Positions 29,306-36,209 of a DNA stretch of 64,000 nt are shown in pieces. The translations under genes were made by a program, and so were the position numbers. The notes under the pieces are model-generated. The model searched no databases. It was given only the letters and a program-made list of their open reading frames with translations, and was not told the origin of the DNA. This stretch comes from a bacterium (GTDB lineage: Bacteria > UBA8248): positions 1,344,001-1,408,000 of the forward strand of contig OZ253442.1 of assembly GCA_965261085.1 (NCBI GenBank), read 5' to 3'. Numbering within the stretch: position 1 is the first letter of the stretch; each line of letters starts with the position of its first letter.

Positions 29306-31594
29306 GTGAGGCGAAAACCAGACACGATTCCAGGCGATAAGAAGATACGCGACCTGCTCGCCAAAGAGGACAGGCCCATGGCCGTGCGCGAACTCGTGCG
29401 CCTGCTCGAAGTTTCCGCCGCCGCGCGGCCTTCGTTCAGGAAACGCCTGCGCGCCATGGCGGAAGAAGGCGCTCTCACCCGCGTTCGCGGACGCTATTCG
29501 ACGCCGGGCTCTCTCTCCATATATCAGGGAATCTTCCGGGGGCACGGACAAGGCTACGGGTTCGTCGTGCCGAAGCAGACGGAGAATGAGGAAAACCCCC
29601 TCGACATCATGATCAAGAAAACACGCACGCGCGGCGCGATGGACGGCGATCTGGTTTCCGCCCGGGTGGAGAAGGTCGATGCGGGCGGGAGGCGCGAGGG
29701 CAGCGTGCTCGACGTGATGGAGCGCGCGCACGAAACCCTGGTGGGCAGGCTTTGCGTGGAAGGCCGAAGCGCGTGGGTGGAGCCCCAGGAAAATCGCATA
29801 CCGCATCTCGTGTTGCTCGAAGCGGGGAGCCGGGAGGGAGCCAGGCGCGGTGAATGGGTGGAGGTCGAGATAAGCCGCTATCCGACCCAGAGGGAACCGG
29901 CCAAAGGACGCATCCTGAAGTCGTTCGGCTATCCCGAAGATCCCGCCGCCGAGGGGCGGATGGTGCTCGCCAAGCACGGGATACATGAGGATTTCCCCGA
30001 AAAAGTTCTGGATGAGGAGGCGAGAATATACCCGCCGGGGGAGGATACTCCCTTCCCCGAGGGGGTGGAGGATTCGAGGGACCTGTGCGCGTTCAGCATC
30101 GATCCATTCGACGCCAGGGACCGCGACGACGCGGTTTCGATTGAAAAAATCAAAGGTGGCCGCCGCCTCGGCGTGCACATCGCCGACGTGGGCCATTACG
30201 TGAAGCCAGGCGGCGCGATCGATAAAGAAGCCCGCGACCGGGGGACGAGCGTGTACTTGCCGGATAGGGCGGTGCCCATGCTGCCGCCCCGCCTCACGGG
30301 CGAGGTGTGCTCTCTGGGCGAGGGAGCGGTGCGCCGCACCTTGAGCGTCTTCATCGATTTCGACCGGTACGGCAACCAGACGGGGATGCGGCCCACCTTC
30401 GCGCGGATTCGCTCGCGCGCCTCTTTGACCTATCGCGGCTCTGCCGCCGTTCTGGAAGGCGCTGAAATTTCTCAGGAAAACGAGATGGAGAGCGCTCGCG
30501 CGTTAGAGGGGCCGCTCCGGGAGTTATCGGCCCTTGCGGATAAGCTCCACGCGGGGCGCATGCGCCGGGGCAGTCTCGATTTCGATCTGCCCGAAGCCCA
30601 GGTTTTACTCGATGAGGAGGGAATGCCGGCAGGCGTTGAGCGTGCGCCCAGAACCTCGGCGCACCGGCTGATTGAAGAGTGCATGCTGGCGGCGAACCGG
30701 GCGGTGGCGGAATATCTTAGCCAGATGGGCGGAGCCTCGGTCTTCCGCGTCCACGACCCGCCCGCCGAGGACAACCTGGAGGGATTAAGGACGATTCTCT
30801 CCAAACTGGGTCTGAAAGCGCCCCGTCTGGAAGCGTTAAAGCGCCCCGGAGGGTTTCAGGAGGTATTCGACGCCGTAAGGGGTTCCGAGGTGGAGCGCTA
30901 CGTGAATTTCGCCACTTTAAGAAGCATGAAGCTCGCGCGCTATCAGGCCGCACCGGCTCTTCACTTCGGGCTTGGTTTCGAGCACTACACGCATTTCACC
31001 TCGCCTATCCGCCGCTACGCGGACCTGTGTGTTCACAGAAGGCTCCAAAGGCTCATGCGCGGTGATAAGCGTAAACCGCAGGCGAAACCGCTCGCCGCCC
31101 TTTGCCATGATATTTCCGAGAAAGACCGAGTGGCTGAGGCCGCCTCGCGCGAGATGGTGCATTTCATGAAGGCGCTCTTCATGCGCGATAAAATCGGCAA
31201 GCGCTTTCACGGCCACGTCTCGGGCGTCGCGAATTTCGGGATTTTTGTGGAGTTGGAGGACATTTTCGTGGAGGGCATGGCGCCGCTCGAATTCATGACG
31301 GATGACTATTACCGTTTCATTCCCGAGGAACACGCGGTTCTGGGCCGAAGGTCCGGCCGGCGGTTTCGCCTGGGAGACCCCGTCACCGTGCGGGTGGAAG
31401 GCGTGGATCTGGCGGCGCGTCGCGTCACCTTTCAGCTACAGGCGGGCGGTACGAGAGAGGTGGCCGGCGATGCGCCCGCCTCACGCCGTCTCGCCGGGCT
31501 CAGCGGTATGCGCCGCCCCGAGAGGAAGAAGCCCCCGACTCCCCGGCGTAAAAAAGGGGGAAAGCCTGCGCCCAAGCGGGGGCGCCGCCGCTGA
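29306..31594 (+). CDS. rnr: ribonuclease R
   Basis: IDP..ARDRDDA, VHIADV, RGTSVY, HFTSPIRRYADL, S1 domain, basic C-terminal tail. Confidence 0.93.
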   Translation: MRRKPDTIPGDKKIRDLLAKEDRPMAVRELVRLLEVSAAARPSFRKRLRAMAEEGALTRVRGRYSTPGSLSIYQGIFRGHGQGYGFVVPKQTENEENPLDIMIKKTRTRGAMDGDLVSARVEKVDAGGRREGSVLDVMERAHETLVGRLCVEGRSAWVEPQENRIPHLVLLEAGSREGARRGEWVEVEISRYPTQREPAKGRILKSFGYPEDPAAEGRMVLAKHGIHEDFPEKVLDEEARIYPPGEDTPFPEGVEDSRDLCAFSIDPFDARDRDDAVSIEKIKGGRRLGVHIADVGHYVKPGGAIDKEARDRGTSVYLPDRAVPMLPPRLTGEVCSLGEGAVRRTLSVFIDFDRYGNQTGMRPTFARIRSRASLTYRGSAAVLEGAEISQENEMESARALEGPLRELSALADKLHAGRMRRGSLDFDLPEAQVLLDEEGMPAGVERAPRTSAHRLIEECMLAANRAVAEYLSQMGGASVFRVHDPPAEDNLEGLRTILSKLGLKAPRLEALKRPGGFQEVFDAVRGSEVERYVNFATLRSMKLARYQAAPALHFGLGFEHYTHFTSPIRRYADLCVHRRLQRLMRGDKRKPQAKPLAALCHDISEKDRVAEAASREMVHFMKALFMRDKIGKRFHGHVSGVANFGIFVELEDIFVEGMAPLEFMTDDYYRFIPEEHAVLGRRSGRRFRLGDPVTVRVEGVDLAARRVTFQLQAGGTREVAGDAPASRRLAGLSGMRRPERKKPPTPRRKKGGKPAPKRGRRR

Positions 31595-31757
31595 ACTACC
31601 CATATGGCTTGAACTCCTGATTCCCTACCTTCTGTTTCTTGATGAATTTTCCTTGTGGCGAAAAATCTTGTGAGGGGCTATATTGTTTCTTGATATGAGG
31701 GAGACGCGGGGAGCGATGCGCTCCTCTTTCTTTTTCTCGGGTTTCGTGAGGTTGACG

Positions 31758-32222
31758 ATGGCGGGCGGCATTAAAATCATCGCGGAGAACAGGCGCGCCC
31801 GCGCCGATTATGCGATCGATGAAACATACGAAGCGGGCCTCGTACTCACGGGCACGGAGGTGAAGGCGCTCCGCGAGGGGCGCGCGAATCTAAAGGAGAG
31901 CTACGGCGACATCTTCGGCGGCGAGGCCTGGCTGGTCGATTGCCACATCAGCCCCTACGGGCACGGCAACATTAACAACCACGAGCCCACGCGCCGGAGA
32001 AAGCTCCTGCTCCACAAGCGGGAGATCGGGCGCCTGATTGGCCGCGTGAACGAGCGGGGCATGACGCTCGTGCCGATGAAGATGTATTTCGCCCGGGGCC
32101 GCGCGAAGGTGGAGATCGGCGTGGGCAAGGGCAAGAAATTCCATGATCGCCGCGAGGAACTCAAAAAACGCGACGCGAATCGTGAGATCGCGCGCGCGCT
32201 GAGAGAGAGGAACCGGGGGTGA
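31758..32222 (+). CDS. smpB: SsrA-binding protein SmpB
   Basis: ENRRAR, EAGLVLTGTEVKALR, RKLLLHKREI, GKGKK.HDRR. Confidence 0.97.
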   Translation: MAGGIKIIAENRRARADYAIDETYEAGLVLTGTEVKALREGRANLKESYGDIFGGEAWLVDCHISPYGHGNINNHEPTRRRKLLLHKREIGRLIGRVNERGMTLVPMKMYFARGRAKVEIGVGKGKKFHDRREELKKRDANREIARALRERNRG

Positions 32223-32425
32223 TGCGCATTATCAAAGACTATACGATGCGCTGGTGGCAGGTGAGCCTGCTGAAAATTTCGATGATGGCGCTTGGTCTGG
32301 CCGTCTGCGCCACCTGGCCGGGAGCCTTCGAGGGCCTGTTGCTCTGGCTCTGGCTGATTTTCGCGCTCCCCGCCGCGTATCTGTGCTACGTCTTCTACCC
32401 CGAAATGTGGGGTAGGCGAAAATAG
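32222..32425 (+). CDS. small hypothetical membrane protein (two TM segments)
   Basis: ATG overlaps the smpB stop; two hydrophobic segments. Confidence 0.5.
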   Translation: MRIIKDYTMRWWQVSLLKISMMALGLAVCATWPGAFEGLLLWLWLIFALPAAYLCYVFYPEMWGRRK

Positions 32426-32487
32426 GGTATATAGAATCGGGCGCGGGGCGATGATCGCCGCCCCGGAGCCTGAGCTTCATCTCTTAT

Positions 32488-32848
32488 GGGGGCGATCTGG
32501 CTTCGACGGGAGGATTTGAAGTCTGAGCTGCGCGCCGGGGACGCCACTTGGCCCCGTTATCAATGTGGCAAAATCTCACCAGCCGACAACGAGCTGGCTC
32601 TCGCTGCTTAAACGCTAGCGAGCGTTCCCCCTCGCCTCGTTCGCGGGTGGGGTGTGGAGCGTCATGATGCGGACTAGCCGACCCAGGTTTCGGTCCGGAA
32701 CCTGCTAGGCGAATTCTAATCGGACTAGCCCGGAGGATTGCCCGCCGGTGGGCTTGAGATTGGGCGAAACCCTTACCACCGGCTACGCGCGTAGACGCTC
32801 AAGACGGAAGCCTTGCGGACGCGGGTTCGATTCCCGCCGCCTCCACCA
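32488..32848 (+). ncRNA. ssrA: tmRNA (one-piece); tag peptide (A)ADNELALAA* at 32582..32611
   Basis: 5' GGGGGCG...TTCGAC; 3' GCGGGTTCGATTCCCGCCGCCTCCACCA with an Ala acceptor G3-U wobble; tag ending LALAA; lies downstream of smpB. Confidence 0.97.
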
Positions 32849-32949
32849 GAATACAATACCTGCGGCGACATAGCGGACGATAACGTCTCGTCTTGCGTCA
32901 TGGCCGGGGCGGATAAGCGCCATGCGCCGCCGATCGAACGGGAGTTGAA

Positions 32950-33765
32950 ATGACCGAAAAAAGCGCCATTCAGAACATGGCCCTGTTTTGCGATTTCGAA
33001 AACATCGCCCTTGGCGTTCGCGACGCCAAATACGCGGATTTTGATATTCAAAGGGTGCTGGAGCGCATACTGCTCAAGGGCAGCATTATCGTCAAGAAAG
33101 CTTATTGCAATTGGGCGCGTTACAAGGAATTCAAGGCTCCCATGCACGAGGCGGCCTTCGAGTTGATCGAAATACCGCACGTCCGCATGTCCGGCAAGAA
33201 CTCCGCCGACATTCGCATGGTCGTCGACGCATTGGACCTCTGCTATACCAAGGCGCACGTCGATACCTTCGTGATTATCAGCGGCGATTCCGATTTTTCG
33301 CCTTTGGTCAGCAAGCTCCGCGAGAACAACAAGGTGGTTGTCGGCGTCGGCGTAAAGAACTCGACCTCCGACTTGCTGACCTCGACCTGCGACGAGTTCA
33401 TCTATTACGACGACTTGATGCGCGAATCCGAAAAACAGGGAAAGGCCAAACGGAAACGGCCGGCCCCCAGCGCCGGAAGAAAGAAAGTCGTCGACGGCGA
33501 CGAGGAAAAACGGCTGGAAGGGCTCAATCTGGTACTGGAGACGACCGAGGACTTGGCCCGGGAGCGGGGCGAGGAAGAAAAGGTCTGGGGGTCGATGGTG
33601 AAGCAGGCCCTGAAACGCCGCAAACCAGGATTCAGCGAATCCTATCACGGATACAAAACGTTCAAACACCTGCTCGAAGACGCGAAAGCCCGCGGGATGC
33701 TGGAACTGGAATACGACAAAAAGTCCGGCGGATACATCGTGAAGAGTGCGCAGCTCGATGAATAG
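32950..33765 (+). CDS. NYN domain (LabA/DUF88, PIN-like RNase) protein with C-terminal OST-HTH/LOTUS-like domain
   Basis: FCDFEN, KNSADI.MVVDA, SGDSDF.PL...LRE, CDEFIYYD, and VKQALKR..PGFSESYHGYKTFKHLL. Confidence 0.9.
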   Translation: MTEKSAIQNMALFCDFENIALGVRDAKYADFDIQRVLERILLKGSIIVKKAYCNWARYKEFKAPMHEAAFELIEIPHVRMSGKNSADIRMVVDALDLCYTKAHVDTFVIISGDSDFSPLVSKLRENNKVVVGVGVKNSTSDLLTSTCDEFIYYDDLMRESEKQGKAKRKRPAPSAGRKKVVDGDEEKRLEGLNLVLETTEDLARERGEEEKVWGSMVKQALKRRKPGFSESYHGYKTFKHLLEDAKARGMLELEYDKKSGGYIVKSAQLDE

Positions 33766-33766
33766 G

Positions 33767-33830
33767 CGCGCGTAGACGCTCACGACGGAAGCCTTGCGGA
33801 CGCGGATTCGATTCCCGCCGCCTCCACCAG
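33767..33830 (+). repeat. displaced copy of the tmRNA 3' end (att-like)
   Basis: cgcgcgtagacgctcacgacggaagccttgcggacgcggattcgattcccgccgcctccaccag matches 32786..32849 at 62 of 64 positions. Confidence 0.95.
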
Positions 33831-33903
33831 TTTCATATGTCTTGAGTACACATGTTTAGCGACTGTCGAGCATAAAATAGCGGCAAAGTGGCCGAGTCAT
33901 GAA

Positions 33904-33933
33904 TTGCATTCAGCCTTTCGCGCGGATTAGAAT
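33904..33933 (+). promoter_or_regulatory. putative sigma70 promoter of ppk1
   Basis: TTGCAT-N18-TAGAAT. Confidence 0.4.
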
Positions 33934-34049
33934 GCGCTCGTCATCAGGGCGGCGTCGCAGAGTCCTTCCGGTTGTTTCGAATGATCTTTTCGGGTTCGCG
34001 TCGCCTTGAGCCGGTAGGTTTCACGAGGCATCCATAGAGGACGCAGAGC

Positions 34050-36209
34050 ATGACGCCCCTGGCCGAAGAGGAATCCTCATCCGTCGCGATCGAGCCGATC
34101 CTCGATCCGCGCCGCCGCTATCTGAATCGCGAGCTCTCCTGGCTCGCCTTCAACTGGCGCGTGCTCGCCGAGGCGAGCAACCTCCGCCATCCCCTGCTCG
34201 AGCGGCTGCGCTTCCTGTCGATATCGGCGAGCAATCTCGATGAATTCTTCATGGTGCGCTTGGCGGGTCTCAAGGGCCAAGTGGCCAACGGCGTGACCCA
34301 GAAGAGCCTCGATGGCCGCACGCCCGCCGAGCAGTTGGCCGAAGTCACCGAGGAAAGCGCGCGGCTCATTCGCGAACAGGAAGCGGTGTGGACGCGCTTG
34401 CAAGGCGAACTCGCCGAGGCCGGTATATCGATGGTCACCACGAAGGATTTAAGCGCCGAGGATATCGAATGGCTCGGCAATTACTTCCTGAAACAGGTCT
34501 TTCCCGTTCTGACGCCCCTGGCCATCGACCCGGCGCATCCGTTTCCGTTCATCGCGAATCGAGGTTTCTCGCTTGCGTTAGAGCTCAAAGCCACCGAGGG
34601 CGCGAGGAAAATGCGGGCTCTGGTTCCCCTGCCCGATCAGGTGCGCCGCTTCACCCGCCTGCCGGGAGAGGAAATTCGCTTCATCGCGCTGGAGAATCTG
34701 GTGCGGCTGTTCATCGAGCAGTTGTTCCCCGGCTACCAAATTATCGGCAGCGGCGTGTTCCGCCTGATCCGCGACAGCGACATCGAATACGAAGAGGAGG
34801 CCGAAGACCTCGTCCTGTTGTTCGAGACCATGCTGCGCCAGAGGCGGCTCGGCGGCGTGGTGCGCCTGAACCTGAGCGTCGACATGCCGGACTCGCTGCG
34901 TGAGTTGGTGACAGACGAGTTCGACGCGCAGCCGGAAGACATCGCGGTACTGACCGGCACCATCGGCATGGCGCAACTCGACGAGTTAATCGATTGCGGG
35001 CGGACGGATCTGATTTTCCCGGCCTACCGGGCGCGCTTTCCCGAGCGCATCCGCGAGTACGACAACGATTGCTTCGCGGCGATTCGCCAAAAGGACATCG
35101 TCGTCCACCACCCCTATGAGAGTTTCGACGTGGTGGTGCAGTTTCTCGAACAGGCGGCGGCCGACCCGAACGTGCTGGCGATAAAACAGACGCTCTACCG
35201 CACGACGGCCGAGTCGCCCATCGTCAAGGCGCTCATCGCGGCGGCGGAATCGGGCAAATCGGTCACCGCGATGGTGGAACTCAAGGCGCGCTTCGACGAG
35301 GAGACCAACCTCAAGCTCTCGCAATCGCTTGAACGCGCAGGCGTCCACGTGGTCTATGGCTTCATGAAGCTCAAGACCCACGCCAAGATCACCTGCGTCG
35401 TGCGGCGCGAGGGCGAAGATCTGCGCAGCTACGTGCATTTCGGCACCGGCAATTATCATCCCATCACCGCGCGGGTCTATACCGATTTGTCGTTTTTCAC
35501 CTGCGATGAGCGGCTCGCCCACGACGCCGCGCAGGTGTTCAATCTCACCACCGGCTATGCGCTGCCGCGCAGCTTCGAGTGCGTCGCCGTGGCGCCTTCG
35601 GGGTTGCGAAAATGCGTACTGGAGATGATTGACGAGGAAATAGCCAACGCCGAGGCCGGACGGCCCGCCGCGGTATGGGCGAAAATGAACTCACTGGTCG
35701 ATGGAACGGTGATCGACAAGCTCTACCAGGCGAGCGCCCAAGGCGTTCAGATCGATCTCGTGGTGCGCGGCATCTGCTGCCTGCGTCCGGGCGTGCCGGG
35801 CCTGTCCGAGAATATCCGGGTCAAGAGCATCATCGGGCGTTTTCTGGAGCACTCGCGCATCGTCTGTTTCGCCAACGGCCACCCGCTGCCCTCCCCTCAT
35901 GCGAAGGTGTTCATGACCTCGGCCGACTGGATGCCGCGCAATTTCGATCGCCGCTGCGAGGTGCTGGTGCCGATAGAAAACGAAACCGTGCATCAGCAGG
36001 TGCTCGAACAGATCATGGTGGCCAATTACAAGGACGATGCGCAAAGCTGGAACATGTCCGGCGACGGCGGCTACGAGCGCGCGCCGCACGGCGAAGAAGA
36101 TTTCACGGCGCACACCTATTTCATGACGAATCCGAGTCTGTCCGGCCGCGGAAGCGCGCTCAGGCGGGCCGGCGGCCCGGCGAGGTTGCGTATTGCGGAA
36201 GATGGCTGA
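34050..36209 (+). CDS. ppk1: polyphosphate kinase 1
   Basis: [59 protein letters not shown]. Confidence 0.97.

Follow-up and report, generated by a model that had tools for sequence, protein, structure and literature searches.

The locus and its repeat

This report concerns a one-gene insert at the 3′ end of the transfer-messenger RNA (tmRNA) gene, ssrA, of a bacterium of the GTDB lineage UBA8248. It lies in a stretch of 64,000 nucleotides (nt), hereafter the window, which spans positions 1,344,001 to 1,408,000 of contig OZ253442.1 (assembly GCA_965261085.1); positions given below are those of the window unless stated otherwise. The gene order around the insert is polA, a metallophosphoesterase gene, rnr, smpB, a 68-residue open reading frame (ORF), ssrA, a gene encoding an NYN domain protein (hereafter NYN), a repeat of the tmRNA end, ppk1 and ppx (Table 1). 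The tmRNA gene is intact, with a match to Rfam RF00023 over the full model (1-374). An earlier account of the window made from its letters alone, the sequence-only reading, had described a repeat of the last 63 nt of the tmRNA plus 1 nt, 981 base pairs (bp) downstream and with two mismatches. A direct-repeat search confirmed this description in full, the two 64-nt blocks being 97% identical and their starts 981 bp apart, with the runner-up direct repeat within 31500-35000 being 25 nt at 72%. The block occurs exactly twice in the 4.27-Mb single-contig genome, and its distal copy is itself matched by the RF00023 model, as a fragment.

The two mismatches differ in their history. The A at 32802 is derived in the tmRNA of the window itself, since a C is present in 8 of 8 other genomes compared and the distal copy keeps that C. 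The other is an A at 33806, in the T-arm part of the distal block, and is common to the window and its nearest relative, G008 (genomes are referred to by G numbers and loci by L numbers). Between the blocks lie a 100-nt spacer and one credible ORF, that of NYN, the stop codon of which ends at 33765, a single base (33766) before the distal copy. Two further ORFs, an overlapping antisense one (32773-33783) and an out-of-frame one (33105-33761), have no Pfam match, so that the earlier description of NYN as the only gene between the copies holds. The G+C content of the insert is 0.52-0.59, versus about 0.61-0.65 in flanking windows.

That the repeat might be an assembly artefact, an eventuality raised in the sequence-only reading, or a chance repeat, can to all intents be ruled out: the same arrangement is present in 14 other assemblies and 2 metagenome contigs, contigs of one public run (X1) span both junctions, and a 62/64 identity with 2 copies per 4.27 Mb further counters such an origin.

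Table 1. Features of the window around the ssrA insert
Feature	Position	Strand	Evidence or remark
rnr (RNase R), upstream context	29306..31594	+	Pfam RNB, CSD2, OB_RNB, S1
smpB, tmRNA partner, context	31683..32222	+	PF01668, E 2.2e-60
Small ORF, 68 residues, between smpB and ssrA	32219..32425	+	No Pfam family; conserved in relatives
ssrA (tmRNA gene), intact	32488..32848	+	ARAGORN; RF00023, 171.3 bits
Proximal 64-nt identity block (putative attL side)	32786..32849	+	Direct-repeat search
100-nt spacer with ribosome-binding site	32850..32949	+	Alignment: a shortened form of the 281-nt G008 spacer
NYN (LK-nuclease/DUF88-type) gene, OST-HTH-like C-terminal domain, 271 residues	32950..33765	+	PF01936, E 5.5e-36
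Distal 64-nt copy of the tmRNA 3′ end (putative attR-side relic), decaying	33767..33830	+	Repeat search; RF00023, 29.7 bits
Native flank, from relic to ppk1	33831..34049	+	
ppk1, core gene downstream	34050..36209	+	Pfam PP_kinase domains

Two side observations concern the neighbourhood of the tmRNA gene. The 68-residue ORF overlaps the smpB stop codon; of 19 loci examined in relatives, tblastn finds it in 17, at 57-90% amino acid identity. The tag peptide that ARAGORN assigns to the window tmRNA is odd (17 residues, positions 127-180) when compared with that of the relatives (ADNELALAA, positions 95-124); it looks like a mis-call, because the reading frame for ADNELALAA is present at 32582-32611.

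Distribution and inheritance of the cassette

Fifteen of the 23 genus genomes have an orthologue of NYN (93-97% amino acid identity), which always stands directly 3′ of ssrA, and a metagenome scan with a 27-nt pattern from the block returned two contigs, both with the same NYN cassette arrangement. The sequence-only reading had proposed an integron-like system of gene capture at ssrA and had looked to the ssrA-ppk1 interval of relatives for empty sites or for different and stacked cassettes. Empty sites do occur (in G007, G016 and G015; see below), whereas no third copy of the tmRNA 3′ end and no stacked or different cassette was found among the 23 genomes, and a 32-nt tmRNA-end pattern (at most 3 mismatches) never gave more than 2 copies in any of 51 genomes of the phylum. 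Because the content never varies, being the same NYN in 15/15 occupied genomes and in 2/2 metagenome contigs, and because nothing is stacked, the integron-like reading finds no support; invariant content is an outcome that the sequence-only reading had itself listed as refuting it.

The NYN genes of 14 genomes of the genus form one clade (support 100/100) with respect to the closest outside sequences, and the main groups of their tree agree with those of the ppk1 tree, the two being broadly congruent. A maximum likelihood tree of ppk1 from 18 genomes places every one of the 13 NYN-bearing rows inside one crown clade (100/99), and the deeper branches, G007, G001 and G020, are without NYN; one or two changes explain this pattern. 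The crown clade also holds two NYN-less genomes, G015 and G010, in an unresolved polytomy. As judged from these trees, the cassette appears to have been inherited vertically since a single insertion event in the ancestor of the crown clade of the genus.

Decay of the distal block and of the spacer

Of the 15 occupied genomes, 10 retain 58 nt or more of the distal block and two (G002 and G022) retain 39-40 nt; in one (G014) the block is reduced to pieces of 32 and 16 nt, and in two (G012 and G005) it was not found. Over nine genomes (36 pairs) the mean pairwise difference is 0.109 for the distal block versus 0.020 for the functional 64 nt, the distal block thus diverging at roughly five times the rate of the functional tmRNA end. 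The changes in the distal block are nested in the manner of the species tree, one being shared by the window and G008, another by G008 and G006, and three by G011 and G017.

The start-to-start spacing of the blocks also varies, from 929 bp with a 48-nt spacer, through 981 bp in the window and 1161 bp in G008, to 1220 bp in G004 and G006, with the long-spacer and 48-nt-spacer forms differing by 233 nt. The window spacer corresponds to positions 1-63 and 234-281 of that of G008 (281 nt), with an 11-nt overlap at the joint; some 170 nt that persist in this nearest relative have thus been deleted from the window genome. This is a derived deletion within the long-spacer clade, and the 981-bp unit is itself derived. 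The 281-nt spacer is single-copy in four genomes. The longest spacer, of 340 nt in G006, was compared with Pfam in 8 frames and matched nothing at E up to 1, and an Rfam search of the G006 long-spacer region matched only the tmRNA and its fragment. Taken together, the comparisons show a distal block that evolves almost freely and is in the course of being lost, and a spacer subject to deletions.

The NYN gene and its product

The PF01936 (NYN) match of the window protein covers residues 10-153, and the N-terminal domain also matches the structures of VPA0982 (PDB 2qip; E 2.7e-11) and of the NYN domain of MARF1 (6fdl; E 1.7e-4). Five acidic residues, D15, D87, D93, D113 and D115, are invariant in 24 aligned sequences and are predicted to be catalytic. 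The name NYN/OST-HTH given in the sequence-only reading stands for its first half; for the second half, the window protein itself gives no PF12872 (OST-HTH) match above threshold, and 16 of the 24 aligned homologues do match (best E 1.6e-6). The C-terminal 80 or so residues of the window protein align with these homologues, such that the OST-HTH region falls on invariant columns; a search of this part against PDB gave no match. Over 66 pairs the ratio of nonsynonymous to synonymous divergence (dN/dS) is 0.111 for NYN versus 0.106 for ppk1, and NYN is retained under purifying selection.

Bacterial proteins combining an LK-nuclease (DUF88/NYN) with an OST-HTH domain have been predicted to have a standalone role in RNA degradation and are reported to have no conserved gene neighbourhood (Anantharaman et al. 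2010, PMC2848206). The window protein resembles them in its N-terminal NYN/DUF88 domain and putative C-terminal OST-HTH-type domain, and the lack of a conserved neighbourhood reported there has a parallel in our outside loci, 0 of 80 of which are next to ssrA. It differs in that its OST-HTH match is below threshold and in that the place behind ssrA is peculiar to the genus of the window.

A defence-gene label was considered and is not given, the PADLOC match being weak and partial (a LabA-like NYN model, E 8.3e-8, over 100/310 positions). As a separate observation, the NYN gene of G019 (L017, G019:C260) is split into two matches, residues 1-190 and 167-271, about 100 nt apart, the second piece of which contains a stop; this arrangement suggests a break by duplication or insertion.

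Foreign affinity and empty sites

In two sister genera the identity of the best NYN homologues is only 51-53%, and no tmRNA lies near them. A search of a collection of 185,579 species' genomes, from which the best 80 loci outside the genus were taken with fetched flanks of up to 6 kb, gave homologues with 66-83% amino acid identity, nearly all of them labelled Proteobacteria, and there was no tmRNA in the fetched flanks of any of these best 80 loci. For the closest outside sequence, 82% identical at the nucleotide level, homology extends from 8 nt before the start codon to approximately 3 nt past the stop codon.

Empty sites are seen in G007 and G016, where the distance from tmRNA to ppk1 is 294 and 174 nt, respectively. 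In G015 some 25 nt after the tmRNA resemble the 25 or so nt that follow the distal block in occupied genomes, a likeness that is to be expected if the distal block is the displaced native tmRNA end. BLAST comparison of empty-site flanks with post-repeat flanks gave 1 match in 72 comparisons, that between G015 and G003 (22 nt at 91%, E 3.6e-5), the other resemblances being by eye. Given its lower G+C content, patchy presence, proteobacterial nearest relatives and the empty sites, the insert is to all appearances foreign. The proposal in the sequence-only reading of an insertion at a tmRNA attachment (att) site is in keeping with these features and with the duplicated ssrA 3′ end.

Recombinases, junctions and expression

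No recombinase gene was detected in the window, as the sequence-only reading had stated: tyrosine recombinases (PF00589) have 22 matches in the genome and none in the window, the nearest lying 16 kb past the window end, and serine recombinases (PF00239) have no match in the genome; transposase families were not searched in the window. None of the PF00589 matches is near ssrA or another tmRNA copy, and the specificity of a recombinase cannot be read from its sequence. Large serine recombinases are present in 6 of the 23 genus genomes, none of them near ssrA. At five places outside the window (G000:C1, near 217974-219649, 1092552-1094235, 2394808-2396699, 3743264-3744943 and 3811554-3813139) the genome has two or three tyrosine recombinase genes side by side, which suggests elements of the recombinase-in-trio type.

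A back-joint of the kind that a circle would give was not found in the assembled contigs of four public runs. One weak joint, 32852 to 33903 (depth 3, side 26), was seen; it is too weak to rely on and does not correspond to the repeats. In contigs of RNA libraries, the tmRNA has a depth of 500-60,000 and NYN one of 4-9. There was no useful contig bridging tmRNA and NYN, the one candidate beginning 15 nt inside the tmRNA and deriving from a long-spacer relative, and such contigs cannot show co-transcription. A search for a terminator-like site between tmRNA and NYN found none, and a scan of 32300-34100 for sigma-70-like promoters gave no site, a result that is uninformative as it missed the ssrA promoter too.

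The ssrA-ppk1 interval and a second islet

Across the genus the interval between ssrA and ppk1 (loci L023-L041; equivalent to 32849-34049 in the window) is as short as 174 nt in places and exceeds 10 kb elsewhere. The genes that it carries vary by species and are often of low G+C content and defence-like; they include those for GmrSD/NsnA-like and HEPN proteins in G001, a PDC-S01 ATPase in G020, a PIN protein in G010, a type IIG restriction-modification-like gene in G004, a ThiF/E1-E2-like protein in G011, HicB in G012, a sulfatase in many genomes, and TctABC in G021 and G003. No tmRNA 3′ repeats (a short-word search gave only chance-level words of 7-13 nt) and no recombinase accompany these other insertions, which are found in NYN-less G001, G010, G018 and G020 and, in G004 and G011, past the distal block. 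The gene ppk1 itself, searched for at E 1e-50, was recovered from 18 of the 21 other genus genomes sampled and from none of 19 genomes that represent the 8 other genera of the family; G009 is without ppk1 and has an ABC-transporter region after ssrA instead.

A second islet of a similar kind is present in G026, a member of another family of the same order (L143:1653-3777). There the last 110 or so nt of the tmRNA recur 1765 bp downstream at 88-94% identity, and the copies bracket a gene for an EamA-family transporter and an ORF of 121 residues for a rhodanese-like protein, with no recombinase. The NYN cassette and the G026 islet are the only duplications of the ssrA 3′ end in the 51 phylum genomes, a small sample in which many assemblies are fragmented. 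Small units free of a recombinase may nonetheless be the usual shape that insertions at ssrA take in this lineage.

Discussion

The combined results make it likely, in our view, that the locus is the fixed and vertically inherited relic of one old insertion at ssrA, immobile and domesticated, rather than an active capture system. A foreign DNA circle bearing a copy of the last 63 or so nt of the tmRNA would have recombined with ssrA, restoring an intact tmRNA that ends in the proximal block and displacing the other copy 0.9-1.2 kb downstream, where it now forms the distal block. Between the two would have been left a short spacer and a single gene, predicted to encode an RNase of the NYN/LK-nuclease type with an OST-HTH-like RNA-binding tail. 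The cassette was probably inserted by a site-specific recombinase to which it has since lost its linkage, and the element itself would now be immobile. NYN may be expressed from transcripts that run on from ssrA, or it may have a weak promoter of its own; an RNase gene in an rnr-smpB-ssrA cluster, with no detectable terminator before it, may be co-expressed with the trans-translation machinery.

Several observations weigh against this interpretation, at least in its simplest form. The distal block is 98-100% identical to the tmRNA end of the same genome in G003 (L036) and G004 (L033); in G003 the identity is 98.5% and extends to the same lineage-specific base, and in G004 the two are identical over 60 nt. 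This likeness suggests gene conversion between the copies, or it could reflect a site that is being maintained. The presence of NYN-less G015 and G010 inside the crown polytomy is also awkward, in that loss of the cassette from them, if real, was precise, and would therefore have proceeded by recombination between the two blocks. Further, the synonymous divergence (dS) of NYN is only 0.58 of that of ppk1 (0.198 versus 0.339) and G012 is placed differently in the NYN and ppk1 trees, so that a later spread within the genus by recombination is possible; some gene conversion or recombination within the genus is indeed likely. The confinement of outside homology to the ORF, together with a stop codon 1 nt from the block, speaks for a compact cassette more than for a product of random deletion. 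No parent island with an integrase came to light: among 137 ORFs (of at least 110 residues) in 17 ssrA-ppk1 intervals, scanned against Pfam at E up to 1e-5, no recombinase or transposase family was matched, and the large integrase-bearing island of relatives that the sequence-only reading had named as a conceivable source was thus not found there. Finally, the lack of a circle joint carries limited weight, since assembled contigs cannot show rare circles.

How the insert came to be so small is a separate matter. That it is a remnant trimmed from a larger integrase-bearing element is plausible, though we would stop just short of calling it probable. A possible alternative, on balance the more doubtful, is that a minimal cassette without an integrase was inserted once by a recombinase acting in trans and was then fixed, with nothing lost since other than by insertions and deletions in the spacer. 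The minimal form is already common to all occupied genomes, foreign nucleotide homology is limited to the ORF, there is no coding remnant in the long spacer, the G026 islet is likewise small and recombinase-free, and the 51 phylum genomes showed no integrase-bearing ssrA island; however, these genomes are few and many are fragmented, in which condition islands assemble poorly, deletion is demonstrably active at the locus (in the spacer), and no candidate recombinase, second cassette of the same att type or donor element was found. The two independent insertions with long blocks and no recombinase, those of NYN and of G026, would fit either mini-cassettes moved in trans or Campbell-type insertion of circularised fragments; even so, it is rather unlikely, as we see it, that genes enter at ssrA in this lineage as very small units without an element-borne recombinase. 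Campbell-type insertion would dispense with a site-specific recombinase altogether: a circularised fragment comprising an ssrA end (about 64 nt) and NYN would have entered by a RecA-dependent single crossover. Blocks as long as those seen (64 nt here, about 110 nt in G026) are expected if their length is that of the carried homology, the native 3′ flank of NYN in its closest outside homologue overlaps the block start by 2-3 nt, and no recombinase is found nearby. We nevertheless regard this route as improbable, as it needs a donor with NYN just 3′ of ssrA, which 0 of the 80 closest outside loci show, while the 2-3-nt overlap may be due to chance, 64 nt is short for RecA, and an integrase would give an equal structure.

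An active, integron-like capture system, in which small non-autonomous cassettes, each with a tmRNA 3′ copy at its end, enter ssrA and are swapped there by a recombinase acting in trans, with expression from the ssrA promoter, is very improbable. The compactness of the cassette, with the NYN stop codon 1 nt from the distal block, the absence of a recombinase from the window and of a terminator-like site between tmRNA and NYN, and the second small recombinase-free islet bracketed by ssrA 3′ copies in G026 are what such a system might look like, and ssrA islands without an integration module have been published for Dehalococcoides (PMC3146451). It is, however, hard to reconcile with a single cassette type in all occupied genomes and both metagenome contigs, with the lack of stacking in 23 genomes, with other insertions at the same place that carry no ssrA repeats, or with a distal block that decays by nested changes and is reduced or gone in 5 of 15 genomes, where both sites should have been conserved; nor was a circle junction seen in assembled contigs, or any recombinase that could be tied to ssrA.

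If the locus is indeed a relic of a single old insertion, it offers a case in which a foreign gene became a stable chromosomal gene via a tmRNA att site and in which the decay of the displaced att copy can be dated over about 15 species. It also implies that a one-gene, integrase-free unit flanked by ssrA repeats is not necessarily an active cassette. Within the genus, the ssrA-ppk1 interval forms a hot spot whose changing and partly defence-type cargo enters without att repeats. Should small recombinase-free ssrA insertions prove to be general, as the second case suggests, the present locus would be a fixed, old member of the class that can serve for dating and comparison.

Relation to known systems

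Integron cassettes form an array of variable content, each with a folded site of the attC type, next to an integrase. The insert described here is like them in consisting of a single promoterless-looking ORF set tight against a recombination site; it differs in lacking an array, variable content, an attC-type site and an adjacent integrase, and in that its repeats are copies of a host RNA gene. The islands and prophages that use tmRNA and tRNA genes with a tyrosine integrase, a traffic at the tmRNA gene reportedly treated by K. P. Williams, are usually many kb long and carry their own integrase beside one att site. With these classical islands the insert shares a restored 3′ part of the gene, a copy displaced to the far end, a foreign composition and the existence of empty sites, whereas no integrase or remnant of one is detectable here.

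Two kinds of element mentioned by McMurdie et al. (2011, PMC3146451) bear closely on the present locus. Cis-mobilizable elements (CIMEs), which are named there and derive from integrative and conjugative or integrative and mobilizable elements (ICEs/IMEs), resemble it in that attL and attR flank cargo without genes for integration or transfer; they differ in keeping functional att sites and relying on a resident helper, whereas the present locus has a decaying distal site and no helper came to light. The ssrA islands of Dehalococcoides, which the paper describes as bounded by a 20-bp repeat, many of them in tandem and with content that differs between strains, appear to be the closest described system. 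Sixteen of those islands encode a CcrB-like serine recombinase, DsiB, and islands lacking the integration module are regarded by the authors as possibly cis-mobilizable or now fixed. In contrast, the cassette seen here is single, measures about 1 kb and never varies in content; its block is 64 nt long, its distal copy is decaying, and the genome has no serine recombinase gene. What the two systems have in common is insertion at the 3′ end of a single-copy tmRNA gene, with the inserted DNA bounded by ssrA on one side and by a direct repeat of its end on the other.

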